A stretch of DNA of 64,000 bases from Candidatus Cloacimonadales bacterium. GTDB lineage: Bacteria > Cloacimonadota > Cloacimonadia > Cloacimonadales > JAFGVF01. The DNA lies in contig CAXXJV010000001.1 of assembly GCA_963663475.2 (NCBI GenBank), forward strand, positions 2,400,001-2,464,000, in the 5' to 3' direction. Position 1 is the stretch's first letter. The number at the start of each line of letters is the position of its first letter. Of this stretch, positions 10,190 through 53,736 are shown piece by piece. The translations under genes were made by a program, and so were the position numbers. Below the pieces are notes generated by a model. That model was not told the DNA's origin and did no database searches. It was given only the letters and a program-made list of their open reading frames with translations.

Positions 10190-10870
10190 ATGATAATATT
10201 AGCTATTGATAGTTCAAATAGCTCTGGTAGCATTGCTATCATTAAGAAGAATGACCTAGTATTCAGCTCATTCTTCAATATAAAGATTACGCATTCAGAG
10301 ACTTTAATGCCCGAGATTCATCGGGCATTGAGTCTGTGTAACCTACTTACTTCTGATTTAGATGCCATTGCTATTGCCCAAGGACCAGGCTCTTTCACTG
10401 GTTTGAGAATTGGCTTAGCTACTGCTAAAGGCATTGCATTTGCTCATGAGATTCCTCTTATTCCAATCTCTTCTCTGAAAATTGTCGCTATGAATTACTA
10501 CGGGATAAGTAAAGATATTCTAGTTATGCAAGATGCAAAAATGAAAGAAGTCTATATTGCCCTCTATGATTCAAAATTAAATGAAATCATCCCCCCAACC
10601 TGTATTAAACCTTGTGATGTAGCTAATTTAATTAAAAATCCAACTATTGCTGTTGGTTCTGGTATTGATATCTATAAAGATACCTTACAGGATAACCCTT
10701 ATATTGAGATTAATAATATCTTAGAAAAAAACCTAGCAAAGGCAGAATCAATGTTTTCTATAATTCATATTGAAAATATTCATCCTTCTTTTGACTTCGA
10801 TTTTAATTCTAAACTTCAACCTTATTATATTAGAAAATCTCAAGCTGAAGTAAATCGAAATCAAGCTTAA
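10190..10870 (+). CDS. tsaB: tRNA threonylcarbamoyladenosine biosynthesis protein TsaB
   Basis: ILAIDSS, HSE.LMP, GPGSFTGLRIG, P.YIR motifs. Confidence 0.95.
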   Translation: MIILAIDSSNSSGSIAIIKKNDLVFSSFFNIKITHSETLMPEIHRALSLCNLLTSDLDAIAIAQGPGSFTGLRIGLATAKGIAFAHEIPLIPISSLKIVAMNYYGISKDILVMQDAKMKEVYIALYDSKLNEIIPPTCIKPCDVANLIKNPTIAVGSGIDIYKDTLQDNPYIEINNILEKNLAKAESMFSIIHIENIHPSFDFDFNSKLQPYYIRKSQAEVNRNQA

Positions 10871-10913: not shown

Positions 10914-11951
10914 ATGTTATTACAAAGATTGTTTAGTAAAATATCAAATGATATAGCCATTGACTTAGGTACTGCAAATACCTTAGTATATAAAAAGAAT
11001 TCTGGTATTGTTATTAATGAGCCTTCTGTTGTATCTCTTGCAACTGACACTAAGAAAGTGCTCGCTATTGGCGCTGATGCTAAAGAAATGCTTGGCAGAA
11101 ATCCTAATGAAGTTACTGTTATTAAACCCCTAAAAGATGGAGTTATAGCAGACTTTCAGGTTACCGAAATTATGCTTAGAAATTTAATACTAAGGGCTCA
11201 GAAAAATAAGTTCCATATAAGACCTAGAGTTATTGTCTGTGTTCCTTCGGGAATTACGGAAGTTGAAAAAAGAGCTGTTAGAGACTCTGCTCTACATGCA
11301 GGATCACGTGAAGTTTATCTTGTATCTGAACCTATTGCTGCTGCTATTGGAGCTGACTTAATGATTCACAAACCCTATGGTAACTTAGTTATGGATATTG
11401 GGGGTGGTACTTCTGAAATAGCTGTTATATCTCTCTCACATATTGTTGTACATAACTCTATCAGAGTTGGTGGAGACTCTATAGATAGAGATATCATTAA
11501 TCATCTAAGAAAAAAGAATAACCTACATGTAGGTATTCAAACTGCCGAAGATATTAAAAAGAAAATTGGATCTTGTGTCCCACTCAAAGAAGAATTATCT
11601 ATGAATGTTGCAGGAAGAGATATTGTCAGCGGATATCCAGTAACTGTTCAAATCAATTCTGAAGAAATCAGAGAGGCAATAAGTGATACTGTCGATATAA
11701 TGATTGATGCTATAAAAAAACTTTTTGAGAAAACTGCACCAGAACTAGCCTCAGATATCGCTGAAAGAGGTGTTTTCTTAACAGGAGGAGGTGCTTTACT
11801 TAGAGGACTTGATACTAAAATTCAAACTACAGTTGACCTACCTGTTCATGTTGTTCCTGACCCCTTAACCTGTGTTGTAAAAGGTTCAGGTAAAATTTTA
11901 GATAACTTAGAAACTTACAGAGAAGTATTGATTAAAAAAATTGAAGACTAA
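10914..11951 (+). CDS. mreB: Rod shape-determining protein MreB
   Basis: IDLGTANT, EPSVV, DIGGGT, LTGGGALL. Confidence 0.97.
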   Translation: MLLQRLFSKISNDIAIDLGTANTLVYKKNSGIVINEPSVVSLATDTKKVLAIGADAKEMLGRNPNEVTVIKPLKDGVIADFQVTEIMLRNLILRAQKNKFHIRPRVIVCVPSGITEVEKRAVRDSALHAGSREVYLVSEPIAAAIGADLMIHKPYGNLVMDIGGGTSEIAVISLSHIVVHNSIRVGGDSIDRDIINHLRKKNNLHVGIQTAEDIKKKIGSCVPLKEELSMNVAGRDIVSGYPVTVQINSEEIREAISDTVDIMIDAIKKLFEKTAPELASDIAERGVFLTGGGALLRGLDTKIQTTVDLPVHVVPDPLTCVVKGSGKILDNLETYREVLIKKIED

Positions 11952-11956
11952 TCATA

Positions 11957-12739
11957 GTGAAAAATTTTTCCTTTATACGATTGATTCTTCTTGCAGTTTC
12001 AATTATTTTTCTTATAGGGAGTGAAGAGAATAAGTTTAAAAAAGCAAACTTCTTCTCTTCTTATATTCTATATCCTTATAGTGAAAGTATTAACTACTTT
12101 CAATCCCTAAAAGAAAAAGAAAAAGAACTTAAAGAAATTACTTACCAACTGTATAAGCAAAAAGTCTATTCAGGGCTTCTCAAAACAGAGTTGATTAAGA
12201 CTAAGTCTAAACTAGGGCTCAAAGATAGATGGTTTTCAGAAGCAGATTCTCTCTTCCTAAGCTTAGATATAATTTCTGCAGAAGTGATATCAAATACTTT
12301 TCCTGTTTATTCAAAAGTTCTCATGCTAAACAAAGGCAAAGACTATAATATTATGGTTAATGATGCCGTAATTTCACAATATGGAATAGTAGGTAAGATT
12401 ATCAGTGTTGGTCCTCAACATTCAATAGTCCTTCCAATTGTTAATTATAATGCTAAATTCTCAATTATGAATAATCGAAATGTTCAGGGAATTCTTAATG
12501 CTGATTATTTAGGTAGTCTTAAAATGAGTTTCATAGAAAAAAATTCAGATATTAATGTTGGTGATACTCTTTATACGTCAAATCTATCTGATATTTTTAC
12601 TAATTACTATGCCCCAGTTGGGAAAGTAGATTCGATTTTTATGGCAGAAAACGAGTTATATTTAGAAGCATATGTTTCTTCATTCACTCAAATTAATAAT
12701 CTCACAAATGTTTTTGTGATTAAAAGGAGTAAAAAATAA
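11957..12739 (+). CDS. mreC: Rod shape-determining protein MreC
   Basis: N-terminal TM, coiled coil, LNKG..GIVGKI..GDTLYTS..PVG; position after mreB. Confidence 0.88.
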   Translation: MKNFSFIRLILLAVSIIFLIGSEENKFKKANFFSSYILYPYSESINYFQSLKEKEKELKEITYQLYKQKVYSGLLKTELIKTKSKLGLKDRWFSEADSLFLSLDIISAEVISNTFPVYSKVLMLNKGKDYNIMVNDAVISQYGIVGKIISVGPQHSIVLPIVNYNAKFSIMNNRNVQGILNADYLGSLKMSFIEKNSDINVGDTLYTSNLSDIFTNYYAPVGKVDSIFMAENELYLEAYVSSFTQINNLTNVFVIKRSKK

Positions 12740-13416
12740 TGAAAGATTTTAAACCTGTTAAGGTTGTTAACAACATTAAATACAGAAGAATTCCAATAAA
12801 GACAAGAATATTATCTCCTAATGACGATATTATAGATTTAATCAAAGAATACGTCCTTCCCCTTTACCAGAAGGGTGATATCGTGGCAATGAGTGAGTCT
12901 CCTGTAGCTATTACGCAAGGACGAGCAATTCCTGTTAGTGAACTAAAAATTGGTTGGCTAGCTAATTTTATGTGGAGATTTGTTGCCAAAGTTCCCTATG
13001 GTGTTGGTTTAAGAGCTCCGGAGAGTATGCAATGTGCTATTGATGAAGTAGGCGGATTAAGAATTATATTAGCTGCTGCTATTGCTGCTATTACAAAACT
13101 TTTTGGTATTAAAGGTATGTTCTATAGAGTTGCTGGTATGCAAGCTGCGCTTATAGATGCAGCGACGACATCACCAGTTCCTCCCTACGATAAATGTGTC
13201 ATCAAAGGTCCCAAAAACCCTCAAAAAGTTACCCAAGAAATCTATGATGCTACAAATATTGATACTGTAATTATGGATATTAATGATATCGGTGGTTCAT
13301 GGGCAATTGGTGCAACAAAAAATGTTGATAAGAAATTAGTTGAACTTATTATGAAAGATAACCCGCAAGGGCAAGGAGATGAACTTACCCCCTTCTGTAT
13401 CATTAGGAAAGAATAA
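12739..13416 (+). CDS. CofE-like (F420-0:gamma-glutamyl ligase family) protein
   Basis: IPIKT..DDI..GDIVAMSESPVAITQGR and IMDINDIG..NPQGQG.E.TP motifs of the CofE family; TAATG overlaps on both sides. Confidence 0.75.
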   Translation: MKDFKPVKVVNNIKYRRIPIKTRILSPNDDIIDLIKEYVLPLYQKGDIVAMSESPVAITQGRAIPVSELKIGWLANFMWRFVAKVPYGVGLRAPESMQCAIDEVGGLRIILAAAIAAITKLFGIKGMFYRVAGMQAALIDAATTSPVPPYDKCVIKGPKNPQKVTQEIYDATNIDTVIMDINDIGGSWAIGATKNVDKKLVELIMKDNPQGQGDELTPFCIIRKE

Positions 13417-13907
13417 TGAAGGCCCTCTCTCTTACTATACTTTCTGTATTAAGTCTATATTACCAAACATTAGTATTAAATGAAGTTTCTTTCGTTTACT
13501 TCATTCCTAACATAATAGTATCCTTATTAATATTTAGTCACTTTTACCTACATATTAATTTTCATACATTTCTTTTCTTTTTAATTGGACTTGCTATGGA
13601 TTGCAACAACCCACCCTTGTTTGGGATATACACTTTTAGCTTTATGACATTATCATATCTAATAACACTTATCAAGAATCATATTGATTTAGATATTTTT
13701 GCCAATAAAATTGCTATGATTTCTCTTTCAAATGCTGCTTTTTATATTTTATTCAGTCTAATGTCAGCTATTGTCTATAAGCAAAGTTACCTAGAGATGG
13801 CAATCACTTTCATTGTTAGTAGTGCCCTAAACACTCTTCTTTCTTTTTTGGTTATTTCCTTGTTAGATTTTCTCAGAATGCTCAAATTTGACCCAACTAA
13901 TGAATAA
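13416..13907 (+). CDS. mreD: Rod shape-determining protein MreD
   Basis: 163-aa polytopic membrane protein with IPN, GLAMD, FG motifs, directly upstream of PBP2. Confidence 0.8.
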   Translation: MKALSLTILSVLSLYYQTLVLNEVSFVYFIPNIIVSLLIFSHFYLHINFHTFLFFLIGLAMDCNNPPLFGIYTFSFMTLSYLITLIKNHIDLDIFANKIAMISLSNAAFYILFSLMSAIVYKQSYLEMAITFIVSSALNTLLSFLVISLLDFLRMLKFDPTNE

Positions 13908-15690
13908 ATTTGCTATATCTCAGATTCTTACCCTATTCTTGATTGTAGGCTTTACTATCCTTACCCTAGCGTTAGCAAAACTACAATTAATTGACGGTGA
14001 GCAATATAGTGAATATGCCCATAATAACTATGTAAAAAAAAGTAGAATTGAAGCAAATCGAGGAGAAATTTATGATAGAAATGGACTCCCTATTGCCCAA
14101 AACTATCCAGCTATTCACTTAGCCATAATTCCTGGCTTTATTACAAATGAAGATTCTTTAAAAGCTTTTCTCTTTAGCAAACTGGATATCAACACTGAAG
14201 ATTATGATTCCTTCATTTATGATACCCGATATAGGAAATATCGTGAAAATATTTTTTATGAAAACCTGAATCAAGACCAAGTTGCTAAAATTGCCGAAGA
14301 TATAAATTATTTTCCAGAAATTAGATTCTCGATTAGTAATACTAGAAGATACCATTTACCCAATCATTTTACAGGTTATATTGGCAGAATAAATCAAGAA
14401 GAATATGAAGTACTAAAAGATAAAGACTACCATTATAATAGCTTTTTAGGAAAAACAGGTATTGAAAAAGAATATGAGAGTATTTTAAAAGGTAGCGATG
14501 GAGTACAATTAAATTTAGTTGATGCTAAGGGAAGAAACTTAAATCTCTTTAATTCCATATCTCAAGATAGAGATAATATCAACATCCAACCCAAAAATGG
14601 TATGGACTTATTCCTCACCATTGATCTAGATCTTCAAAAATACATTGATGATACATTCCCTCCTGACTTAAGAGGGGCTGTAGTGGTGATGAACTATGAG
14701 AGTGGTGAGGTCTTAGCCTATGTCTCTCGCCCTGAGTTTGATCAGAATATATTTATGTCTAGAATACCAACTACTATGTGGGATTCAATCAAGGCTGATA
14801 CGACTAAACCATTTTTAGATAGAGTCAGTAAAGCAGTTTATCCTCCTGGGTCAGTCTTTAAGATTGTTCCTGCAGCCCTAGGTTTAGAGAATAATATTGT
14901 TAGCAAATGGACTAAACTAGCCTATTGTGACGGAGGCATGCAAGTTGGTAATAAATATGTAAAGTGCTGGAATCACTATGGACATGGTAGCCTAAATGTC
15001 ATTGATGCCTTAAAAGTTTCCTGTGATGTTTACTTTTATGATCTTTCTTTTAGATTTGATTTAGACGATTTCTGCTACTTTGTTAAAGATTCAATGTTAA
15101 GTGAAAAAACTGGTATCGATATTCCAGATGAAGCAAAAGGCTTCTTCCCCACTAGTAAATGGTATAAGAATACTTATGGAATTTACACATCTATAACAGG
15201 CCATAAAGTTAATTTATCTATTGGCCAAGGAGAAATGTTTATGACTCCTTTGCAAATATGCGCTCTCTATGCTGGTGTTGCGAATAATGGTATTTGGAAG
15301 AAACCTCATCTCTTAAACAAAGCAGTAAGAGAGGATTCTATTTTAACTTTTAGTGATTTCAACGATAATACACAAGTTACTTTGCCTTACAGTCCTGAAA
15401 CTTTAGCAACAATTGAAGAAGGTCTAAGAAGAGTAATTATCAAAAGTGATGGAACAGCCCACTCTCTTAATAGAAAAGGAAGGCTTATATATGGTAAAAC
15501 TGGTTCTGCTGAGCATAAGATTGGAAGATTAACCCATGCTTGGTTTGCTGGTTATGAAAAAGATACAAAGCTTGCTATAACAGTTTTTGTTCAAGAAGCA
15601 GGTGGCGGAGGAAGTGTAGCAGCTCCTATAGCTGGAAAAGTCTTTGACTATTATTACAATAAAGAGGAAGCTAATAATGTTAAGAATTAA
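13900..15690 (+). CDS. mrdA: Penicillin-binding protein 2
   Basis: RGEIYDRNG, YPPGSVFK (SxxK), SCD, KTG motifs; ATG 13900 preferred over TTG 13888. Confidence 0.93.
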   Translation: MNKFAISQILTLFLIVGFTILTLALAKLQLIDGEQYSEYAHNNYVKKSRIEANRGEIYDRNGLPIAQNYPAIHLAIIPGFITNEDSLKAFLFSKLDINTEDYDSFIYDTRYRKYRENIFYENLNQDQVAKIAEDINYFPEIRFSISNTRRYHLPNHFTGYIGRINQEEYEVLKDKDYHYNSFLGKTGIEKEYESILKGSDGVQLNLVDAKGRNLNLFNSISQDRDNINIQPKNGMDLFLTIDLDLQKYIDDTFPPDLRGAVVVMNYESGEVLAYVSRPEFDQNIFMSRIPTTMWDSIKADTTKPFLDRVSKAVYPPGSVFKIVPAALGLENNIVSKWTKLAYCDGGMQVGNKYVKCWNHYGHGSLNVIDALKVSCDVYFYDLSFRFDLDDFCYFVKDSMLSEKTGIDIPDEAKGFFPTSKWYKNTYGIYTSITGHKVNLSIGQGEMFMTPLQICALYAGVANNGIWKKPHLLNKAVREDSILTFSDFNDNTQVTLPYSPETLATIEEGLRRVIIKSDGTAHSLNRKGRLIYGKTGSAEHKIGRLTHAWFAGYEKDTKLAITVFVQEAGGGGSVAAPIAGKVFDYYYNKEEANNVKN

Positions 15691-16888
15691 AAACTTTGAT
15701 TTCGGACTTTTCTTTGCTTGGTTTTTGTTAGTTTCTATTGGGATAATTACTATCTACACTGCCTCAATTTCAACTTATGGTGATTACACCCAAATTAATA
15801 ATTATTATATGAAACAGCTAGTCTTTTTCCTGATAATCATTCCAATCTTCTACTTAATACAGAAAATTCCTTATTTTGTTATTGATACACTAATAATACC
15901 AGGTTATATTCTTTCAATTATACTATTAGTTATTGTCTTGTTTACTCCTGAAATAAATGGATCGAATAGATGGATACAGCTGGGTTCTTTCCGCCTACAA
16001 CCTTCTGAAATTGCGAAGATAATGACAATCTTAACAATCAGTAAATTTCTAGCTAAGCCTCATCAAGGTGATGCTAAGAAAATTCTGATTGGTTTCTCTT
16101 TTTCTATCATTCCTATATTTTTAATCATGATTGAACCTGATTTTGGAACAACCTTAGTATTTTGGGTTGTCTTATTTGCTATGCTATTAGCTGCAAAAGT
16201 CCCAATCATTTACCTACTTATCTTAGTTTCTCCAATTGTTTCAATATCATTAGTAATATTTTCATTTTACTGGTCTTTATTTTATATATTAGTTATTGCT
16301 TTCTGCTTATTTAAGTTAAGATTCCATTGGGTTATTCAATCTCTTTCTTTGATTGCTAATGTCTTTGGCTCATTGATTTTTTGGCAGATACTCAAACCTT
16401 ATCAGATAAATAGGATTCTGACTTTCATGGATCCTACTAGAGACCCTCTAGGAGCAGGTTATCAAGTAATACAATCTAAGATTGCTATAGGTTCTGGAGG
16501 TATGTGGGGAAAGGGATTTTTACAAGGAACTCAGAAAAACTTAGATTTCTTACCTGAACACCATACCGACTTCATATTTTCGGTTTATGGAGAAGAGTTA
16601 GGCTTTATGTTATCACTTCTTTTACTAGCCTTATTTTTCTTCTTATTAATAAAAATAATAAAATCAATTGACAAAATATACGTTCTTGAGCGTAAGATAG
16701 CAACAGTTGGTATTTTTACTTTCATTTTCTTCCAACTCTTCGTAAATATTGGAATGAATATTGGAATAGTACCTACTACTGGAGTCCCCCTCCCCTTTAT
16801 TAGTTATGGTGGCTCTAATTTGTTAATTAATTCTGTATCAATTGCTTTGGTACAAAAGTTTCTTGTAGAAAAAGGATTTATGAAATGA
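15677..16888 (+). CDS. rodA: Rod shape-determining protein RodA (SEDS family)
   Basis: RW..QPSE, EPDFGT, HTDFIF, PFISYGGS; GAGG RBS before ATG 15677. Confidence 0.93.
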   Translation: MLRIKNFDFGLFFAWFLLVSIGIITIYTASISTYGDYTQINNYYMKQLVFFLIIIPIFYLIQKIPYFVIDTLIIPGYILSIILLVIVLFTPEINGSNRWIQLGSFRLQPSEIAKIMTILTISKFLAKPHQGDAKKILIGFSFSIIPIFLIMIEPDFGTTLVFWVVLFAMLLAAKVPIIYLLILVSPIVSISLVIFSFYWSLFYILVIAFCLFKLRFHWVIQSLSLIANVFGSLIFWQILKPYQINRILTFMDPTRDPLGAGYQVIQSKIAIGSGGMWGKGFLQGTQKNLDFLPEHHTDFIFSVYGEELGFMLSLLLLALFFFLLIKIIKSIDKIYVLERKIATVGIFTFIFFQLFVNIGMNIGIVPTTGVPLPFISYGGSNLLINSVSIALVQKFLVEKGFMK

Positions 16889-17466
16889 TTAAAAAAATTC
16901 TATTACTGATATTATTGGGATTCATTATGACATCCTGTGCTCGTTTTGCCAAACTTAGAGAAGAGAATTTCTCAAAACATTTATCAAGCAATCTCATTGA
17001 AAATAGTTCTTTTGAAATTTATCAAGACCCATTAGACGCTGACTATCCTGGCTGGATTATTGATAAATTATCTGTTAACAAAGTAGCTATTGATTCTACT
17101 AGAAGCTTCACAGGTAAGAACTGCCTTAAGATCTCTCAAGCGACTAGTGAGATGCAATTAGTAACAAAACCTTTTAGCACCCATTATAGAAATGTCTATG
17201 GAATTAAGTTCTCTGCAAAATCAGTCTTGAGAAAAATCCCTATAGCTATTCACTTTCTTACCTTTTCTGAAAATGGTAAAATTGTATCAAAATATTACAG
17301 AAATGTTACTATTGATACTAACTGGCAAACCTATAGTTTAACTTCTGATTATTTAAAAGTGAATTCAGAGTTTGGTAGAGTGTTTATCACTATTCCTGAA
17401 AATAACTCAGTTCTCTTAATTGATGATGTTACATGTCATATTATTGATTCATACCAGAAAAAATGA
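16885..17466 (+). CDS. Lipoprotein with probable carbohydrate-binding (CBM4/9-like jelly-roll) domain
   Basis: Lipobox-like MTSC; NLIENSSFE..W..G..W..IDDV pattern; overlaps rodA stop. Confidence 0.6.
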   Translation: MIKKILLLILLGFIMTSCARFAKLREENFSKHLSSNLIENSSFEIYQDPLDADYPGWIIDKLSVNKVAIDSTRSFTGKNCLKISQATSEMQLVTKPFSTHYRNVYGIKFSAKSVLRKIPIAIHFLTFSENGKIVSKYYRNVTIDTNWQTYSLTSDYLKVNSEFGRVFITIPENNSVLLIDDVTCHIIDSYQKK

Positions 17467-20449: not shown

Positions 20450-21952
20450 ATGAAAAAAATAATACTAATAATAGCAATGCTACAGTTTATAAATATTCTT
20501 CTATTTGCTTGTGATATGTTCATGTTACAAGCTATAGACCAGGCACCTTTCTTAACATATCCTAGTTTAAATGGGAATTTTAATGATCCCTATGATTACT
20601 TTGAAGATTTCAAGTCTCTAGCTGATGGTTCTTCAGGCAATAGAGATGGATATGGAATTGTAGCTTATACCATAGATAGTGAAATAGTAAGTAGAGATTA
20701 TATCTGGTATAAGACTGGTATGGGCAATCATTTTGATGCAAACAATCCAGATGAAGCTCTTTATCAAGCAATGAATATTCTTTATGATAATCCTAATATT
20801 GAAAGAGTTTTCGTCCATGCTAGATCTGGTACTGGCGGACAGGGCAGTCATCCATTCATCTTCAATCATAATAATAAGACTTATACTTTCATGCACAATG
20901 GCTATATTTTTAATAATGCCAAAAGAGAATTAATGAATTTCTTAGGTGAGGAGTGGTTCCAAGAATATCCATCTCAATGGTATGGTGAATATGGAGATAC
21001 TTATTCTTTTATTGATAGTGAATTAATTTTTCATTACCTTATAAAGTATATTATCCAATATCCTGAAGATATTTCAAAAGCTTTGAGTATGGCCTTTACT
21101 AACAAGCGAGTAGGTAATATTGATATGGAGTATATGTTCAAGTATAACAATTCTGCTATTCTTAATTTTGTTTTATCTGATGGAATAGATTCCTATGTAT
21201 ATCGCTCTTCTCGCCTATTAGGAACATCCTATAATCTATCCTATCAAGTTTATCCTAATAACTTTCTGGCGATAAAAACCAATACTAATCTAGAAAACAC
21301 AATAGCAAAAAATCAAATGCTTAAATTTTCAAGCTCAGGCCTAATTGATACCTTAAGTCTATCCCCTATCTTACAAACTAATTTTATAAGTAAATATGTG
21401 GAAAAATTAGATAATAATGAATTTAGGTTAAACTGGGAAATTCTTTCAAATCCTAACATTAATAGCTTCAATATCTATCGTTCCAGTAATCGTGATTTCT
21501 CTAATTCAGAGAAAATATCATCCCTAATACCCACTTCACCTAATCAATCTACATTTTCCATTACAGATACATATTCAGCAAGTCAAGACCACTATTACTG
21601 GATAGAGGTTGTCTTTTTAGACAGTTTTAGTGAACTTACATCAAACATTCCATCAGACCAACAAGCTGAACCACCAATTGTTGTTGAAACTTCTGAGATC
21701 ATCTCTTTGTATCCAAATCCCTTTAAAGAAAAATTAAATATTTCTATTGATAGTCAAAATGATTATAAAATTAAAATTTACAATTTAAAAGGTCAGTTAA
21801 TTGATAAGTTACTTTATGAAGGTGAAAAAAATAATCCTCTTATTTGGAACACAGAAAATATTAAGAACCATAAACTTCCTAATGGAATCTACATTCTCAA
21901 GCTTTCAAATGGAGGTAAAAATCAAAGCAGAAAAGTAATGAAAATTAATTAA
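20450..21952 (+). CDS. Secreted class II glutamine amidotransferase-like (Ntn hydrolase) protein with T9SS-like C-terminal domain
   Basis: Signal peptide then CDMF; NRDGYG, HAR, HPF, FMHNG, DSE motifs; C-terminal YPNPF..IYNLKGQ..GIYILK. Confidence 0.8.
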   Translation: MKKIILIIAMLQFINILLFACDMFMLQAIDQAPFLTYPSLNGNFNDPYDYFEDFKSLADGSSGNRDGYGIVAYTIDSEIVSRDYIWYKTGMGNHFDANNPDEALYQAMNILYDNPNIERVFVHARSGTGGQGSHPFIFNHNNKTYTFMHNGYIFNNAKRELMNFLGEEWFQEYPSQWYGEYGDTYSFIDSELIFHYLIKYIIQYPEDISKALSMAFTNKRVGNIDMEYMFKYNNSAILNFVLSDGIDSYVYRSSRLLGTSYNLSYQVYPNNFLAIKTNTNLENTIAKNQMLKFSSSGLIDTLSLSPILQTNFISKYVEKLDNNEFRLNWEILSNPNINSFNIYRSSNRDFSNSEKISSLIPTSPNQSTFSITDTYSASQDHYYWIEVVFLDSFSELTSNIPSDQQAEPPIVVETSEIISLYPNPFKEKLNISIDSQNDYKIKIYNLKGQLIDKLLYEGEKNNPLIWNTENIKNHKLPNGIYILKLSNGGKNQSRKVMKIN

Positions 21953-22100
21953 TATTAAAGTAAACTTGCTTTCCAATATTTTTGTAATCTTAGTCAATAG
22001 CTTTTGATATTAATTATTGATGTTAATATTATTAAAAATTATACTTGACATTAAATAACACATTTGAATATTATTTTTAAAAATATAGGAGGGCATAATA

Positions 22101-23372
22101 ATGACCTGTTCTAGAAAAGTATTCTTTTTGATTATACTTATTTTTATAAGTATATCTTTATCAGCCGTAAATGTTGGAACTAATCGAGATAATATCCTTT
22201 TAAATTACCAAATTTTTCTTCAAAATGAGACTTTCCCCAAAGAATATCTTCTATCACAAAGAGACAATTTATATCAACCAGATATGGATTCTTTTTATTA
22301 TAGGACAAGCGAACCTAATGAAGAGCCTGTTTTTGCCCCTATAGCTGTAATAGATTACTCCTACTCTGATGATGGTAAGTTGTTATCAACTTCAAATTAT
22401 AATCAACATGTAGGTGGCCAAATCATTCTTTATTCAATCTATAATTATGATTATGAAGATGATTTATTAAAAACTATTGCTCTTGAATCCTACGAAGAGT
22501 TTGAAATACTCATGAATACTACTTATCATAACTATTATTACGATGATAATAATCTTATTGACTTCATATCTAAAACTATGGAAGATGAAGTGGTCTTTGA
22601 GATAGAAGATTACACTTTCAATGATAATGATCTTATAGCAAGAATTGATTACTTTGATGGTAATAATGAGTATATTTCTACTAGTGTCATAGATTATATG
22701 CTTTTTGAGTATGATGACTACTCAAGATTAAGTTCTGTAAAATCATGTAAAATCTATCCTGATAATCAAATTTCTATCAGAAGTCAGTCATATTTTTCCT
22801 ATAATTCCCATGGAAATATTACATCTATTGTTATTGGAGATTCTACTTCTTATAATTATAATGTGCATGAATATTCTTATGATGAAAATAATCTTTTAAC
22901 TAAAATAGACCATTATAGTGTAGCTGGCCAAGAATATTCTTTGGTTTATTATCTAGAAATGATTAATGATGAAAATGGGAATAAATGTCGAGAAAATACT
23001 TACTCTTATGCTTCTGACTCTGATATTCCTTACTGTTCTTCCTATATTACTACAAGTTACTTAGCATTTGTAGCTAATAATAATGTAGAAATCAATCCTG
23101 ACACTAATCTCAGGAACTATCCAAATCCTTTTAATCCTGTTACAACAATTTCTTTCAACTTACAAGCTTTGAATAATCCCTCTTTAACAGTATATAACCT
23201 AAAAGGGCAGCTTGTTAAATCATTCAAAAGTCATAATTACCACTTAGGAGAAAATAAAGTTATCTGGGATGGCAAGGATAATAATGGTAAGAATGTTGCC
23301 TCTGGCCTATACTTCTACCATCTTAAAACAGACTCTTTTACAAAAACAAACAAGATGATATTAATGAAATAG
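22101..23372 (+). CDS. Secreted acidic Tyr/Asp-repeat protein with FlgD-Ig/T9SS-like C-terminal domain
   Basis: Repeated Y.YD..G/N.L motifs; NYPNPFNP..VYNLKGQLVK..WDGKD..SGLYFY; GGAGG RBS. Confidence 0.75.
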   Translation: MTCSRKVFFLIILIFISISLSAVNVGTNRDNILLNYQIFLQNETFPKEYLLSQRDNLYQPDMDSFYYRTSEPNEEPVFAPIAVIDYSYSDDGKLLSTSNYNQHVGGQIILYSIYNYDYEDDLLKTIALESYEEFEILMNTTYHNYYYDDNNLIDFISKTMEDEVVFEIEDYTFNDNDLIARIDYFDGNNEYISTSVIDYMLFEYDDYSRLSSVKSCKIYPDNQISIRSQSYFSYNSHGNITSIVIGDSTSYNYNVHEYSYDENNLLTKIDHYSVAGQEYSLVYYLEMINDENGNKCRENTYSYASDSDIPYCSSYITTSYLAFVANNNVEINPDTNLRNYPNPFNPVTTISFNLQALNNPSLTVYNLKGQLVKSFKSHNYHLGENKVIWDGKDNNGKNVASGLYFYHLKTDSFTKTNKMILMK

Positions 23373-27154: not shown

Positions 27155-28198
27155 ATGACCATAATCTTTTTAATTTTTCTGATCATAACCTTTGTTCATA
27201 TTATTCTAGGACTGGCTCTTTTCCGCCAATATCCCACAATTAATGATTATCTGCATAGCTTTTCAATAGTTGTAGTGGCTCATAATGAAGAACAAATGCT
27301 TAGCCCTCTTCTTGAATCTCTCTTAGCTATAGATTATCCTGTGGAAAAACTTGAAATAATCCTAGTTGATGATTTGTCAACAGACAGTACTTTTTCACTT
27401 ATTGCTGATTATGCTAGTAAATATCCATTTATCAAAGCTATCATAACTGATCAGAAGTATTCAGATTATAAGGGTAAAAAAGCTGGACTACAAACAGCTC
27501 TAGATCTAGCTCAGAATGAAATTGTAGTTTTTACTGATGCAGATGCTCTTGTTCCTAAACAATGGCTAAAAAGCCATAACTCCCTGTTCACCTCTCAAAC
27601 AGGAATGGTTATCGGCTATATTAGAGGAGAAAATATCAAAGGCTTAAAGCGCTACAAAAGAATCTTCTCATCTGGACTTTTTGCTTCCTTATGCAGTCTG
27701 GGATCAGCATTTTCCTGTTCTGGTGGAAATTTAGCTATTAGGAGACTTGCTCTCAAGCAAGTAGATGGTTATGCAAGTATAAAAGACTTCCCTTCTGGTG
27801 ATGACAAACAAATGCTAAATTTGATTAAAGCAAGTAAATACAAGATTGCTTATAATTCGCAAATAAAAGTTATCGAAAGACAAAGAAACCTAACTTCTGA
27901 ACAAGCTTATCAACAAGCTATCAGACACTATGGAAAAGTTGCAATTTCAAGTAAGACTTATCAAATTGGCTTTATTATAACAAGCCTTTTTTATCTATCT
28001 ATCCCTGTGATTGTCTTTTTTCAGCCTTCAATCTTATTTCTATTTTGGTTAGGAAATATATTCTTTTACTTTTGTGCCTCTTTGCTTCATAAAGAAAAGA
28101 TTTATCTGGAAGATATTTTTCTTACCATCATTTATCCATATTATATGTTATATTTTTCCTGTTTAGGAACATTCACTGAGGCAAAATGGAAAAAGTAA
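27155..28198 (+). CDS. Glycosyltransferase family 2, membrane-bound
   Basis: VVAHNEE, DDLSTD, TDAD, GDD motifs; N- and C-terminal TM helices. Confidence 0.9.
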   Translation: MTIIFLIFLIITFVHIILGLALFRQYPTINDYLHSFSIVVVAHNEEQMLSPLLESLLAIDYPVEKLEIILVDDLSTDSTFSLIADYASKYPFIKAIITDQKYSDYKGKKAGLQTALDLAQNEIVVFTDADALVPKQWLKSHNSLFTSQTGMVIGYIRGENIKGLKRYKRIFSSGLFASLCSLGSAFSCSGGNLAIRRLALKQVDGYASIKDFPSGDDKQMLNLIKASKYKIAYNSQIKVIERQRNLTSEQAYQQAIRHYGKVAISSKTYQIGFIITSLFYLSIPVIVFFQPSILFLFWLGNIFFYFCASLLHKEKIYLEDIFLTIIYPYYMLYFSCLGTFTEAKWKK

Positions 28199-29058
28199 AA
28201 AAAAGCATCGGATTCTTTTTGAAAATTTCGATTTCTCTAGTAATCTTAGTTTTTATTTACTCAAAAATTGATATTAATGCTTTTCTTAGCAATATCAAAC
28301 AACTATCATTCATTACTTTAACATTACTCATAATTACAGCCTTATTAAAACATATTACCCAAGGTTTGAACTGGTATTATGCACTAACTATTAATACTAA
28401 ATACAAACCTAGCCTCCATGAAATTATTAAATCCTACTTGATAGGTCTTTCATTAGGCTTTGTCTTACCTGGTGGTCACGCTACCTATGGTAAAATGTAT
28501 TTTATCCAAAATTCCAAAAAAGCTACTTTTGCTTCTGTCTTGATTGAGAAGTTTTTCCAAACTTGGGGAAATCTCTTTTATGCTTCTTTTGCAGTAATTT
28601 ACTTCTTTAAAGATCTAGCCTTTTGGTTAAAATTATTTATACCTCTAACTGTTACCATCTCTCCCCTTCTTTTACTAGCCTTTATCTATTTTATCCCAAA
28701 ATTTAGAATCCATCTACCTGTTCTTAAGAAAATCTTTCCTAAAATAATACTTTCTCAAATGATTTATATCCCACTTACCATTGTTCAGTATTGGTTAATT
28801 TTAATCTCATTTACAGATATATCCTTTTTCCACACCTGTATTTCAACAACATTAATCTTATCATCGAATGTTATTCCAATAACATTTTCAGGTTTAGGAC
28901 TCAGAGAATATTTTGCTATAAAAGTTCTTGCCCAATATGGTATTACTAATACTGCTGCAGTAACTGTTGCCCTGCTAATCTTCTTCATTAATATGCTATT
29001 ACCAGCTCTCATCGGAGTTATCTACATAATCAATCATAAAAAAAATGATAATCTTTAG
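28186..29058 (+). CDS. Lysylphosphatidylglycerol synthase TM / flippase-like membrane protein
   Basis: Polytopic; LPGG, IEK, IPITFSGLGLRE motifs. Confidence 0.8.
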   Translation: MEKVKKSIGFFLKISISLVILVFIYSKIDINAFLSNIKQLSFITLTLLIITALLKHITQGLNWYYALTINTKYKPSLHEIIKSYLIGLSLGFVLPGGHATYGKMYFIQNSKKATFASVLIEKFFQTWGNLFYASFAVIYFFKDLAFWLKLFIPLTVTISPLLLLAFIYFIPKFRIHLPVLKKIFPKIILSQMIYIPLTIVQYWLILISFTDISFFHTCISTTLILSSNVIPITFSGLGLREYFAIKVLAQYGITNTAAVTVALLIFFINMLLPALIGVIYIINHKKNDNL

Positions 29059-44614: not shown

Positions 44615-45820
44615 CTTGTCCTCTCTTTTCATTTACTCTTTGTAGGAAGATTAAACCAAATAAGAAAAAAGGAATAACTGTTAATATAGAATACCTGATA
44701 TCACCAGTTATTTTACTGGCTAAGCCAAATAAAATTGGTCCTATCACAGCTGACATTCTTCCAGTTACTGTATAAAATCCAAAAAATTCTGCATTTTTGC
44801 TCTGGGGTGTTAGAGAAGCTATCATTGCTCTGCTATTTGCCTGAGTTGAACCTATTGCGAAACCTGCAAGTAATATTACAAAGTAATAATCTTTTTTTGC
44901 TGGAGATAAGAAAGCCCAAAAAATAACAGACAACCAAATTAAAAGGCAAACAGTTAAAGTTTTTTTATGACCAATTTTATCTGCTATAAATCCAAATACA
45001 AAAGCACCTAAAATTGAAGTTAACTGGGCTAAGATAAATATTTTAATTGATTCTTCGGAAGTCATGCCATAGCGTTCATGTCCATATATCATTGTAAAAC
45101 CTATAGCCGTAGATATAGCATCATTATAGAAAAAGAAACTTAAGAGAAAGTTCCCCAAATCTTTAAATGACTTAATTGATTTAAATGATGATTTAATTCG
45201 TGAATAAGCTATTCTAAAGTAATTTGAACGTTTAGAAGGTCTTTTAAATTCTTTCAACATAACAAATGTTATTATAGCAAATGATCCATAAAATAGTCCA
45301 ACCATTGGAAAGACATACCTTATTTTTTCTATGTTAACTAGCCATAAGGCTAAAACAAGCGAAAGCAAACCTCCAGCATATCCAAAGGCCCAGCCAAAAC
45401 CAGATACTCTCCCTAACTGCTTTTTTGAGGCTATCTCTGATAAAAAAGAATCATAAAAGACAATTGCTGAATGAAAACCAAAATTTGCTATTATAAAGAA
45501 TAACATGCCATAGAAAATAGATCCTGGCCCAATAAAACCGAGTAGCATTGTAAAAATTACTGATAGGTAAGTATTATAGAAGAGAAACTTCTTCTTAGCT
45601 CTAGAGTAATCAGCTACAGCACCGAAAATGGGAGCAGTTAAAGCTACTAAAAACATTGATATTGCTAAGGATAGACCCCATAAAAAACTGCCATCTGCCT
45701 ATCTCCTACTACGACATTTTTAAAATATACACTATACACTACCGTTACAATAATGGTAGTAAATGAAGAATTAGCGAAATCATAGGCCATCCAACCAAAG
45801 ATGCTTTTATTTATCTTCAT
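44589..45820 (-). pseudogene. MFS transporter (Atg22/UMF1-like) split by a 1-nt frameshift near 45699
   Basis: ATG 45820 gives MKINKSIFGWMAYDFANSSFTTII..FKNVVVGDR then stops; the adjacent frame continues ADGSFLWGLSLAISMFLVA into ORF 44589-45656. May be a sequencing error. Confidence 0.85.
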
Positions 45821-46883
45821 TGCGATTTCCTTCTGATAAGTTAATAATAGGAAATTGGAAGTTTAAATAATTATCAATATTAGGAGAAGCTATTAATATT
45901 TGATGATCATTTGTTAATAGCCCAAGTATTTTATCTACCCTATTTTTATCAAGTTCTGATAAAGCATCATCAAAAATAATTATTGGACATGTATTCAGAT
46001 TATCTTTAATCATTTGGATTTGCGCAAATCTCAAAGCAATAACAAGTGATCGTCTCTGTCCTTGTGAAGAATACCTCTTTACTGAATATCCATTTATATC
46101 AAAGTTATATTCATCTAGATGAGGTCCAAAGAGAGATCTTTTGTATTCAATTTCACTTTCTTCAATCTTTATCAGATAGTCATTCAACCATTCTTCTTCA
46201 TAGATAACATGATTATTACTTTCATACTTAATTTCAAGTGTTTCAAAAGATTCTGTTATGTTATTTAAAGTAGATTCTGCGTAATCTACAAAGTTATTTA
46301 AGTACTTATGTCTGTATTCTACAACTTCCATAGCTTTTGTAATAAACTGTTTATTCCATTGCTTTAGTTGAGAGTGAAATCGTGAGTCTTTGAGAATTGA
46401 ATTTCTTTGTTCTAAAATTCTATAATAATCTCGCAATATTTCACTGTAAAGGACTGATGATTGGGTTATAGCTTGATCAAAAAAACTTCTTCGTTTCTGC
46501 CTATTACCGTTAACTAACCAAATATCATCTGCAGAAAAGTAAACAATTTTCAAATAATTATAGAGATCACTAATTCTTGTAATAGGATTATTATTGAGTT
46601 TAATATTTTTCTTAGTTTTGTTATAAGTTACCTGAAAATTATATACTTTATTTTCATCAAGGTACTTACTCTTAATCAAGAATTCATCAGCATCAAAATT
46701 AACTAAATCAGAATCTGCATATTGTCTGATTGATTTTCCGAAAGCAGGATAGCAAATAGCCTCGAGCAGGTTAGTCTTACCAATACCATTTTTGCCTGTG
46801 ATAAGACTACCCTGATTCTCAAAACTAAAAGTCTGTTTAGTATAATTTCTAAAATTATAAAGAGAAATTTCTTTTATATACAC
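45807..46883 (-). CDS. recF: DNA replication and repair protein RecF
   Basis: NFRNY, GKNGIGKTNLLEAI, GPH.D, SQGQ, DD..SELD. Confidence 0.95.
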   Translation of the reverse strand: MYIKEISLYNFRNYTKQTFSFENQGSLITGKNGIGKTNLLEAICYPAFGKSIRQYADSDLVNFDADEFLIKSKYLDENKVYNFQVTYNKTKKNIKLNNNPITRISDLYNYLKIVYFSADDIWLVNGNRQKRRSFFDQAITQSSVLYSEILRDYYRILEQRNSILKDSRFHSQLKQWNKQFITKAMEVVEYRHKYLNNFVDYAESTLNNITESFETLEIKYESNNHVIYEEEWLNDYLIKIEESEIEYKRSLFGPHLDEYNFDINGYSVKRYSSQGQRRSLVIALRFAQIQMIKDNLNTCPIIIFDDALSELDKNRVDKILGLLTNDHQILIASPNIDNYLNFQFPIINLSEGNRNEDK

Positions 46884-46886
46884 TTA

Positions 46887-48032
46887 CTATCTAGCAACTC
46901 TCAAAGGCATTAAGAGGTATCTTAACAAGCTACCTTCTGGGTCTTTTTCATTATAGAAGAGAGCAGGATTCTTAGCTTGGCCCATACAAATTTTAACATT
47001 ATCAGTATCTATACTATCTAAAATTGTTGTTAAAAATTTGAAGTTAAATGCTATACTAATATCTTCGCCATTATATTTAATATCATTAATAAATTCCTTA
47101 GCTCCACCTTTTTCATCATTACTTGTAGCTAATTCAAGTTGACTTCCTTTAATATTAAACATTATTTTGAAGCTATCTTCAGGAGCAACTAAAGATATTC
47201 TTTTAACTGCAGCTTTTAACTGTTGCTTATCTAAAAGAAGCTCATTAGGTAATGTTTCTGGGAATACTTTATTGTAATCTGGAAATTTGGTTGTCATAAG
47301 ATGAGAAAATACAACGAAATTTCTATACTTGAATACAACTTTATTTTTGCTAATTTCAGCTTCTAATATATCAGATTCATCTGAGATAATTTTTTGTAAG
47401 AAACTTATACCGCCCGTAGGTAGGACTATTTTCATAATTTCTTCTTCTTCATCAATCGTATTTACAAAATTATCTGTTTTTGAATCAATAGCAATATGAG
47501 CAATCTTTTTGCTATCAGTAGCTACCATTGCTTGTTTATCAGCTGAAATTTCCCATAAAATTCCAGAGAAGATTGAATTATGTTGATCTTTCTGAACAGC
47601 CACAATGGTTTTATTAATCATTTTATCAAATTCAGAAGCTTTAAATTTGATTGAGTCTGCAAAAACTGCTTCTGGTATTAATGGAAAGTTTGAGTAATCG
47701 GATAGATTTAAATTAAAATCAATATTTTCGCAATGAATTTTTAAAAGTTCATCATCTTTAGTGAAAGTAATTTGAGAGTCTGGTAAGGCAGATATAATTT
47801 CATTGAAATCTTTTGCTGTTACTGCAATTGTACCAGATTCCATTACACTTGCATTAAAAGTAACAATAACAGTTATTTTTAAATCTGTTGTAGTAATTTT
47901 AATCAAATTATCTATTTCAATGGCTTCTATCAAGTAGTTAGTTAAAATTGGCATTGTATTTTTACTTGGAACAACTTGAGAAAGATGTTGAATATTATGT
48001 AACAAATCTCCCTTATCTATAAAAAATTTCAT
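46887..48032 (-). CDS. dnaN: DNA polymerase III beta sliding clamp
   Basis: PILT, TDL, VATDS, FPDY, AFN, C-terminal LLMPLR. Confidence 0.95.
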   Translation of the reverse strand: MKFFIDKGDLLHNIQHLSQVVPSKNTMPILTNYLIEAIEIDNLIKITTTDLKITVIVTFNASVMESGTIAVTAKDFNEIISALPDSQITFTKDDELLKIHCENIDFNLNLSDYSNFPLIPEAVFADSIKFKASEFDKMINKTIVAVQKDQHNSIFSGILWEISADKQAMVATDSKKIAHIAIDSKTDNFVNTIDEEEEIMKIVLPTGGISFLQKIISDESDILEAEISKNKVVFKYRNFVVFSHLMTTKFPDYNKVFPETLPNELLLDKQQLKAAVKRISLVAPEDSFKIMFNIKGSQLELATSNDEKGGAKEFINDIKYNGEDISIAFNFKFLTTILDSIDTDNVKICMGQAKNPALFYNEKDPEGSLLRYLLMPLRVAR

Positions 48033-48444: not shown

Positions 48445-48467
48445 TTGAAATACAACAGGGGTCAAAG

Positions 48468-48581
<114 letters not shown>

Positions 48582-48748
48582 CTTTGACCCCTGTCAAAAA
48601 TGTTTATTTTACTTAGTTTATCGTGCCTGAATAATTAATTTTAAAATGATTCTTATTCTTTCATTTTTCATTTTTCATTATTAATTCTTCATTTCTCTTA
48701 CTGTTGTTAAACAGTAAGAGATAATAGAGTGTATATAAAAAATATTAA

Positions 48749-51859
<3,111 letters not shown>

Positions 51860-51953
51860 AAAAAATTAATTATACACACTCTATTGCACTCTATTTACTG
51901 TAAAATTTTATGTATCGGAATTTAGTCTGATTAGGTTATATATAAGTATAAGA

Positions 51954-52029
51954 TGGTGGAGAATAACGGGCTCGAACCGTTGACCCCCTGCTTGCAAAGC
52001 AGGTGCTCTCCCAACTGAGCTAATCCCCC
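51954..52029 (-). tRNA. tRNA-Ala(TGC)
   Basis: GGGGGATTAGCTCAG..CT-TGC-AA..GGTTCGAG..CCA in the 16S-23S spacer. Confidence 0.97.
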
Positions 52030-52048
52030 ACTAATTTAATATATTATA

Positions 52049-52125
<77 letters not shown>

Positions 52126-52199
52126 CCTTACTTAGAACTAAATCCTTTATTTGTTATAGAATGAAAAAGTAAACTTATCAAGAAACTATTTCTCCTTTA

Positions 52200-53736
<1,537 letters not shown>

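Follow-up and report, generated by a model that had tools for sequence, protein, structure and literature searches.

A CofE-fold protein encoded between mreC and mreD in Cloacimonadota: a candidate amide ligase for peptidoglycan precursors

What is a relative of CofE, the F420-0:gamma-glutamyl ligase, doing among the genes for side-wall synthesis? The question is raised by a stretch of 64,000 nucleotides (nt) from a Candidatus Cloacimonadales bacterium (phylum Cloacimonadota; assembly GCA_963663475.2, contig CAXXJV010000001.1, positions 2,400,001 to 2,464,000 of the forward strand), called the window here, in which the gene of a 225-amino-acid (aa) CofE-fold protein, X, stands between mreC and mreD in the operon of the Rod complex, or elongasome (mreBCD-mrdA-rodA; Table 1). 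We hypothesize, with about even confidence, that X is a nucleotide-dependent amide ligase attaching an amine to one of the carboxylates of a peptidoglycan precursor in side-wall synthesis. The original prediction, made from the sequence of the window, had proposed an amide ligase outside the Mur family that modifies a peptidoglycan precursor or another envelope component; comparative gene context in three lineages and synteny across the phylum lend this proposal support, because relatives from its clade are fused with, or encoded next to, MurNAc-L-Ala amidase, L,D-transpeptidase, the lipid II flippase Amj, glutamate racemase and polyamine-forming decarboxylases.

The place of X in the operon is tightly defined. 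The stop codon of mreC (TAA, 12737-12739) has one base in common with the start codon of X (ATG, 12739-12741), and the stop codon of X (TAA, 13414-13416) has one base in common with the start codon of mreD (ATG, 13416-13418); direct reading of the sequence confirms the TAATG at both ends that had been predicted. The mreD call itself was made on weak profile matches below their cut-offs (PF04093, 18.2 bits vs 24; TIGR03426, 21.4 vs 34.85), taken together with size, hydrophobicity and conserved position. Nor is the placement unique to one genome, a circumstance that would have told against the original prediction: across 42 Cloacimonadota loci (30 from a search of the phylum and 12 from other families and another order), mreD and/or pbp2 lies directly 3' of X in all 42, and mreC lies 5' of it in 41, the contig of the 42nd starting inside X. 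An open reading frame (ORF) of MreD size begins between -25 and +16 nt from the X stop in 37 of the 41 other loci, and a possible X start lies between -38 and +4 nt from the mreC stop in 40 of the 41 loci with mreC, a count that takes the codon nearest the mreC stop and is biased to small gaps by that choice. Such tight coupling of mreC, X and mreD is not chance, and in its conserved position and co-translation X is a member of the Rod-complex operon.

X is present in 167 of 201 sampled Cloacimonadota genomes, in 124 of the 151 that are of high quality and in 51 of 61 genera, and the named homologues returned by sequence search were Cloacimonadota. Identity outside the genus is 56-67% for X, 60-81% for MreB, 34-47% for PBP2 (penicillin-binding protein 2), 26-36% for MreC and, where it was detected, 23-36% for MreD; in another order of the class the values are 56-62% for X vs 60-64% for MreB, by which measure the constraint on X in the most distant order is close to that on MreB.

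Relatives of X are numerous. A search of 1.84 billion representative sequences gave 930 matches at E <= 0.001, 143 of them at E <= 1e-30, and a search of the ESM Atlas gave clusters of the same family only. When the 73 longest among the 150 matches listed were scanned with Pfam, X or its family proved to be fused with Amidase_3 (MurNAc-L-Ala amidase) in 6 representative clusters, with GATase_7/Asn_synthase (AsnB-type) in 10, with TPR repeats in 12, and in one cluster each with GNAT, M20 peptidase, adenylate kinase, HD_4, CDP-alcohol phosphatidyltransferase, PlsY and polysaccharide deacetylase. About 23 further representative clusters, encoding proteins of ~400 aa, carry an unassigned N-terminal domain of ~190 aa, consisting of a transmembrane helix and then basic residues, which is homologous to a separate 180-aa gene beside X in Negativicutes, here called Y (blastp E down to 1e-13); outside that class, therefore, Y also occurs fused to X. 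A FastTree phylogeny of 196 X domains and six CofE outgroup sequences unites the Cloacimonadota, TPR-X, Y-X, Bacillota and Negativicutes forms in one clade of 109 rows (support 96), and a quick IQ-TREE analysis (LG+G4) of 83 rows chosen per group recovers a 45-row clade with a Shimodaira-Hasegawa-like approximate likelihood ratio test (SH-aLRT) value of 99, Cloacimonadota X being sister to the rest of it (SH-aLRT 98); both trees were made without bootstraps and take their root from the distant CofE outgroup. AsnB-fused and clostridial forms fall outside this clade, the latter in variable and uninformative gene contexts. The X of the window therefore belongs with the forms of Negativicutes, of Bacillota of the Pelotomaculum/Desulfotomaculum type, and with the Y-X and TPR-X fusions, and it is the neighbourhoods of these relatives, gathered with a narrow family alignment or with single-protein queries, that point to the cell wall.

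In Negativicutes X was found in 120 of 121 sampled genomes. Y, which is membrane-anchored, adjoins X in 78 of the 80 loci examined (one of them titled Bacteroidaceae and probably mis-binned), and the glutamate racemase gene murI lies within 1.5 kb 5' of X in 30 of the 72 loci whose sequence extends far enough. This murI scores 192-214 bits against TIGR00067 (cut-off 146.65) and is the only glutamate racemase above the cut-off in four of five genomes checked, as expected of a housekeeping copy. The gene order in Phascolarctobacterium is thioesterase-X-Y. According to passages of three reports (PMC5020339, PMC10628300, bioRxiv 10.1101/2021.05.31.446380), a polyamine, cadaverine or putrescine, attached at D-Glu's alpha-carboxyl in peptidoglycan is a conserved trait of the Negativicutes, and polyaminated D-Glu is the ligand of the S-layer homology (SLH) domain of OmpM/Mep45; no enzyme is named in these passages. 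Full-text searches of the open-access literature turned up no named gene for the polyamine ligase of Negativicutes. Selenomonas is said to possess a 'lipid intermediate:diamine transferase' activity. Given that X and Y are near-universal in the class and sit beside its murI, and that the X of the window falls in the same clade, we infer a tie between the X-Y pair and polyamination; the tie is our own, not that of the reports cited.

The Bacillota loci, 80 in number, were retrieved by querying with an Amidase_3-X fusion and bear names taken from record titles, a few contigs being titled as other phyla. By tblastn, Amidase_3 is fused to X or lies within 300 nt of it in 67 of the 80, and a pyruvoyl arginine decarboxylase (PvlArgDC) or an Orn/Lys/Arg decarboxylase lies within 1.5 kb in 44 (with these queries none was found in the other 36). 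Twelve loci have Amj at a distance of up to 300 nt and 11 have an L,D-transpeptidase at up to 2.5 kb; in 33 of 78 loci the decarboxylase lies within 300 nt 3' of X. Pfam annotation of seven loci gives the orders: Amidase_3, X, Orn/Lys/Arg decarboxylase in two from Pelotomaculum; Amidase_3, L,D-transpeptidase, Amj, X, pyruvoyl arginine decarboxylase in Desulfofundulus and Desulfotomaculum; X, Amidase_3, PvlArgDC in a metagenome-assembled genome of Thermoanaerobacterales; Amidase_3, X, PvlArgDC in Ammonifex; and, in one locus, an Amidase_3-X fusion with a MurJ-like gene after it. Because two unrelated families of decarboxylases, makers of diamines or agmatine, occupy the same place beside X, the protein appears to be functionally tied to an amine. 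In Pelotomaculum terephthalicicum an SLH-domain protein (L210:4614-5084) is encoded ~0.9 kb 5' of the row of Amidase_3, X and decarboxylase, a neighbour of interest since it is SLH domains that recognise the polyaminated peptidoglycan of Negativicutes.

The fold and the conserved residues of X point to CofE and to an enzyme. The AlphaFold2 model, based on an alignment of 55 homologues, has a mean predicted local distance difference test (pLDDT) score of 93.8 and a predicted template modelling (pTM) score of 0.90, and a Foldseek search of the Protein Data Bank (PDB) with it returned only CofE chains of A. fulgidus (E 2.8e-8 to 1.1e-6, template modelling score 0.54-0.61), the next-best match having E 0.73. 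X as a single sequence found nothing significant among PDB sequences (best E 0.57); the profile of its family matches CofE sequences at E 5e-6 (HMMER), and hhalign pairs the family with 26 actinobacterial CofE/FbiB domains (30 PF01996 loci minus three from unpublished genomes and one short locus) at a probability of 97-98% and E 3e-11 to 4e-12. The two proteins share a fold at 15-18% identity. In the hhalign alignments, with CofE residues numbered by aligning an actinobacterial CofE to 2G9I, D140 of X aligns with D109, the Asp of the CofE motif 'G(I/V)DA'; Q60-G-R stands opposite E47-G-R (the 'QGR' motif aligned) and I58 opposite K45; the C-terminal G211-Q...T217-P218...R223 stands opposite G207...P214...R219 (the 'P..(I/V)R' motif aligned); and D180-I-N182-D183 stands opposite D150-T151-N152, where the HMMER and hhalign registers differ by two or three positions. 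D109 and D150 of CofE are residues that we take to bind metal. Across an 87-row alignment of the X clade ten residues are invariant (T22, D47, G105, G126, D140, P158, D180, N208, P209 and G211), three Asp and one Asn among them, and two more are nearly so (N182 in 85 of 87 rows, D183 in 83 of 87), a pattern that fits an enzyme active site.

Two larger differences separate X from CofE. One is a helical insert of ~50 residues (about 70-137), which CofE lacks and which contains a hydrophobic helix at residues ~104-125 (Kyte-Doolittle maximum over 19 residues 1.88); X had been predicted to be soluble, and its hydropathy profile agrees in showing no N-terminal signal or anchor, while this helix qualifies the description. 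The other is a gap in X, seen by profile alignment only, in global and low-threshold hhalign runs, opposite a CofE segment of ~30 columns, 'D.RG..D..GR.L..T'. We equate this segment with the domain-swapped hairpin covering F420 according to PMC10861534, which describes the F420 head group of CofE as held by that hairpin together with C-terminal residues (G153-C155, R234); in the hhalign alignment the C-terminus of X ends short of the R234 region.

As an amide ligase X would be a cytoplasmic CofE-fold enzyme with CofE-like chemistry, in which a nucleoside triphosphate and a metal, held by conserved Asp residues (D140, D180-x-N182-D183), would activate a carboxylate by turning it into an acyl phosphate, which an amine would then attack, giving an amide. 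The carboxylate would be supplied by the stem peptide of lipid II or of a UDP-MurNAc-peptide, most plausibly as the free alpha-carboxylate of D-iso-glutamate, and translational coupling to mreC and mreD would mean that production of X keeps pace with that of the Rod complex and that X decorates precursors of the side wall. Catalysis, the nucleotide, the peptidoglycan substrate and contact with MreC, MreD or MreB are all what we infer for X. For its relatives the neighbouring genes suggest a polyamine or agmatine as the amine, a suggestion that we confine to them and do not carry over to Cloacimonadota. More tentatively, and with clearly less confidence than we place in the ligase activity itself, the X family could be the missing ligase that puts polyamines or other amines on the D-Glu alpha-carboxylate of lipid II, and hence the enzyme responsible for the polyaminated peptidoglycan that tethers the outer membrane of Negativicutes, the Cloacimonadota version working in the Rod complex, between MreC and MreD, and marking only the side wall made by the elongasome. 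On that reading a CofE-fold, non-Mur route of peptidoglycan diversification would exist in at least four phyla.

Comparable modifications are known. MurT/GatD amidates the alpha-carboxylate of D-iso-glutamate in lipid II, and AsnB-type amidotransferases act on meso-diaminopimelate. Both resemble the job proposed for X, in which a carboxylate of the stem peptide becomes an amide through a nucleotide-dependent reaction on the cytoplasmic side; however, MurT has the fold of the Mur ligase family whereas X has PF01996 only and no Mur ligase domains, and both draw on glutamine-derived ammonia whereas the nucleophile of X would be another amine. Some relatives in the X outgroup are those fused to AsnB-type enzymes. 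MurT, the known enzyme acting on the D-iso-glutamate alpha-carboxylate, was not found in the genome of the window when its MurT_C domain was sought, an absence that we count in favour of a ligase role for X and that also figures among the points against the model of peptidoglycan and amines in Cloacimonadota.

A number of observations weigh against this hypothesis. Of the neighbour features of its clade, the X of the window has neither the amine-supplying decarboxylase nor the membrane anchor Y: its neighbours in the window include no gene for a decarboxylase or for any other supplier of an amine, no PvlArgDC or OKR_DC-type enzyme was found in its genome, and a search of the genome for Y, run without a positive control, gave nothing at E <= 1. 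No SLH-domain protein able to read a polyamine mark was found there either, another difference from Negativicutes. A 386-aa decarboxylase of the alanine-racemase fold occurs in 95 of 201 Cloacimonadota genomes; it is missing from two families whose members all have X (f5 and f14) and present in several genomes that lack X, and was rejected as a dedicated amine supplier because it does not co-vary with X. X is absent from 34 of the 201 genomes, and since all five of these that were examined keep an intact mreB-mreC-mreD-pbp2 row, it must be regarded as an accessory that the Rod system can dispense with. Only Y is a more constant neighbour in Negativicutes than a 4HBT (YbgC-like) thioesterase, which adjoins (murI)-Y-X in 64 of 80 loci and is not explained by a model of peptidoglycan and amines. 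Distant relatives have neighbours of unrelated kinds (PRPP synthase-CTP synthase-GtrA, HD domains, two-component systems, fusions with adenylate kinase or GNAT), and the annotated cyanobacterial Y-X genes have no peptidoglycan or polyamine neighbours except one SpoIID: around them lie genes for an epimerase and for a 444-aa weak-GNAT protein as well as ruvX, but none for a decarboxylase. The replacement of E47 by Q60 and of K45 by I58, the register shift at D-x-N-D and the lost hairpin together imply that nucleotide and metal binding may differ in X. Finally, owing to relatedness among genomes, the locus counts in all lineages overstate the number of independent events.

Two side observations belong here. 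In the genome of the window, a locus of contig 2 (108737-112471) encodes a second decarboxylase of the alanine-racemase fold, of 450 aa, whose best matches, FslC-like and LysA-like, are below cut-offs. Its neighbours are genes for an ATP-grasp 'carbamoyl-phosphate-synthase-like' protein and for a urea-transporter-like one. The cyanobacterial protein of ~444 aa is conserved 3' of the Y-X fusion in five of six annotated loci, with a weak GNAT match in two of the five and no Pfam family in three; ruvX comes after it in three loci, as does a DUF3727/DUF1292 gene in four.

The alternative that survives best, though we consider it doubtful, leaves X a CofE-type ligase but gives it a different target from peptidoglycan, for instance a lipid of the membrane, an envelope polymer of a teichoic-acid-like or another kind, or a small metabolite. 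The placement of X among the mre genes would then reflect co-expression with growth only. The thioesterase neighbour and the dispensability of X would both suit such a role, as would the occurrence of GtrA-like and MurJ/Polysacc_synt-type neighbours and the fusions with PlsY and CDP-alcohol phosphatidyltransferase; these lipid-enzyme fusions, however, were each seen in a single cluster, placed outside the X clade or at its edge, and could be artefacts of gene calling, and the partners that recur within the clade are Amidase_3, Amj, L,D-transpeptidase, murI and the Rod operon. A parallel is offered by QimC of Streptococcus pyogenes, which PMC12803152 describes as CofE-like (by HHpred against 2PHN) and as encoded, in a bacterium that does not make F420, in an operon for a teichoic-acid-like modification of the wall. 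QimC resembles X in these respects, by description only, and differs in that its Rgg2/3-regulated qim operon is a sugar/teichoic-acid-like pathway, whereas X belongs to the Rod system.

Less probable still, and in our view unlikely, is that X has retained the CofE fold without its catalysis and serves the Rod complex as a subunit or as a nucleotide-sensing regulator. Translational coupling to the structural proteins MreC and MreD, MreB-like conservation in another order, the fusion of some relatives to TPR repeats, which are protein-interaction modules, the changes at E47 and K45 and the loss of the F420-contacting hairpin could all be read in this way. The invariant or nearly invariant D47, D140, D180, N182 and N208 are what a metal and nucleotide site would be expected to show, D140 aligning with a conserved Asp of CofE; fusion or adjacency to substrate-making decarboxylases and to glutamate racemase is typical of enzymes; and the family is common away from the Rod genes, with mreB, mreC and pbp2 found by tblastn within 6 kb of X in none of the 80 Negativicutes and none of the 80 Bacillota loci.

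There remains the identity that databases would give it. PF01996 (F420_ligase) is the sole Pfam domain detected in X, at 31.5 bits (cut-off 25) and over profile positions 2-133 of 218 only, and no NCBIfam model, including the CofE equivalog TIGR01916 / NF009809, matches it at E <= 0.01. A profile scan found no F420 biosynthesis gene other than X in the 64-kb window, bearing out what had been noted at the outset, and a search of the whole genome (completeness 99.24%), which the original prediction had envisaged and in which a complete F420 pathway would have told against it, found a single PF01996 gene, no CofD match (the control was positive in 11 of 14 reference genomes), a best CofC score of 21.5 bits, under the cut-off of 22, and for CofH only generic radical-SAM matches (maximum 41 bits vs a cut-off of 374). 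Among 61 actinobacterial genomes, three of which are flagged as unpublished and enter these score tallies only, 40 have PF01996 matches, and their scores are bimodal: 36 at 152-250 bits and six of X type at 24.6-34.6 bits, besides a 42-bit fragment of a true CofE. Two actinobacterial genomes have a full-length CofE (158 and 113 bits; profile 4-218) alongside X-type paralogues (21-30 bits; profile 3-142). As judged from these profiles, X is a member of a separate, widespread family of CofE paralogues and not an F420 ligase; the likeness originally drawn to CofE homologues of F420-free bacteria was right as to the link, the family being distinct from CofE proper. The F420 ligase identity was rejected in view of the missing equivalog match, the absence of CofD and of CofC or CofH above cut-off, the coexisting paralogues and the lost hairpin. 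That X is a genuine CofE is scarcely credible, for all that it has the CofE fold, scores above the PF01996 gathering threshold and has several homologues labelled 'coenzyme F420-0:L-glutamate ligase' in their source records, when it lacks a counterpart of the segment that holds F420 according to PMC10861534 and its gene contexts are those of the cell wall.

If X is indeed an amide ligase for peptidoglycan precursors, a function would be given to a large family that is labelled 'coenzyme F420-0:L-glutamate ligase' in bacteria without F420 (the 930 representative clusters above), and the Rod/elongasome operon would gain a new enzymatic member across a phylum. Peptidoglycan polyamination in Negativicutes would also have a concrete gene candidate; as the polyamine mark anchors the outer membrane of diderm Firmicutes, X would then bear on envelope evolution and might be a target for narrow-spectrum inhibitors.

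Table 1. Genes and signals of the mre operon in the window (positions count from the first nucleotide of the window)
Feature	Position	Strand	Basis and remarks
tsaB-like gene	10190..10870	+	PF00814 TsaD family, 99.7 bits; directly 5' of mreB
mreB	10914..11951	+	PF06723 MreB_Mbl, 445 bits
mreC	11957..12739	+	PF04085, 104.6 bits; hydrophobic anchor at N-terminus; stop overlaps X start
GGAG, Shine-Dalgarno-like	12726..12729	+	Within mreC, 9 nt 5' of X ATG; read from sequence
X, 225-aa CofE-fold protein	12739..13416	+	ORF, PF01996 match, AlphaFold model, Foldseek, alignments
mreD, 163 aa, polytopic	13416..13907	+	Weak profile matches, several hydrophobic segments, conserved position
mrdA (PBP2)	13888..15690	+	PF00905 Transpeptidase, 179 bits; PF03717 PBP_dimer, 122.4 bits
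rodA	15644..16888	+	PF01098, 295.1 bits
193-aa ORF, lipoprotein-like	16885..17466	+	ATG overlaps rodA stop; no Pfam match

The 193-aa ORF after rodA, whose product has an N-terminal hydrophobic segment and then a Cys, is possibly the last gene of the mre operon. Elsewhere in the window, two proteins encoded at 20450-23369 (+) have a type IX secretion C-terminal sorting domain (Por_Secre_tail), and one of them also has a domain like that of class-II glutamine amidotransferases. At 27155-29055 (+) a family 2 glycosyltransferase gene is followed by one for a protein with a lysyl-phosphatidylglycerol synthase transmembrane region (PF03706), a pair that may serve in modifying membrane lipids or the envelope. 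A complete rRNA operon occupies 48466-53736 on the minus strand (5S 48466-48582, 23S 48745-51861, two tRNAs 51957-52125, 16S 52200-53736) and adjoins dnaN (46890-48032) and recF (45810-46883); the short ORFs listed inside it are probably not genes.

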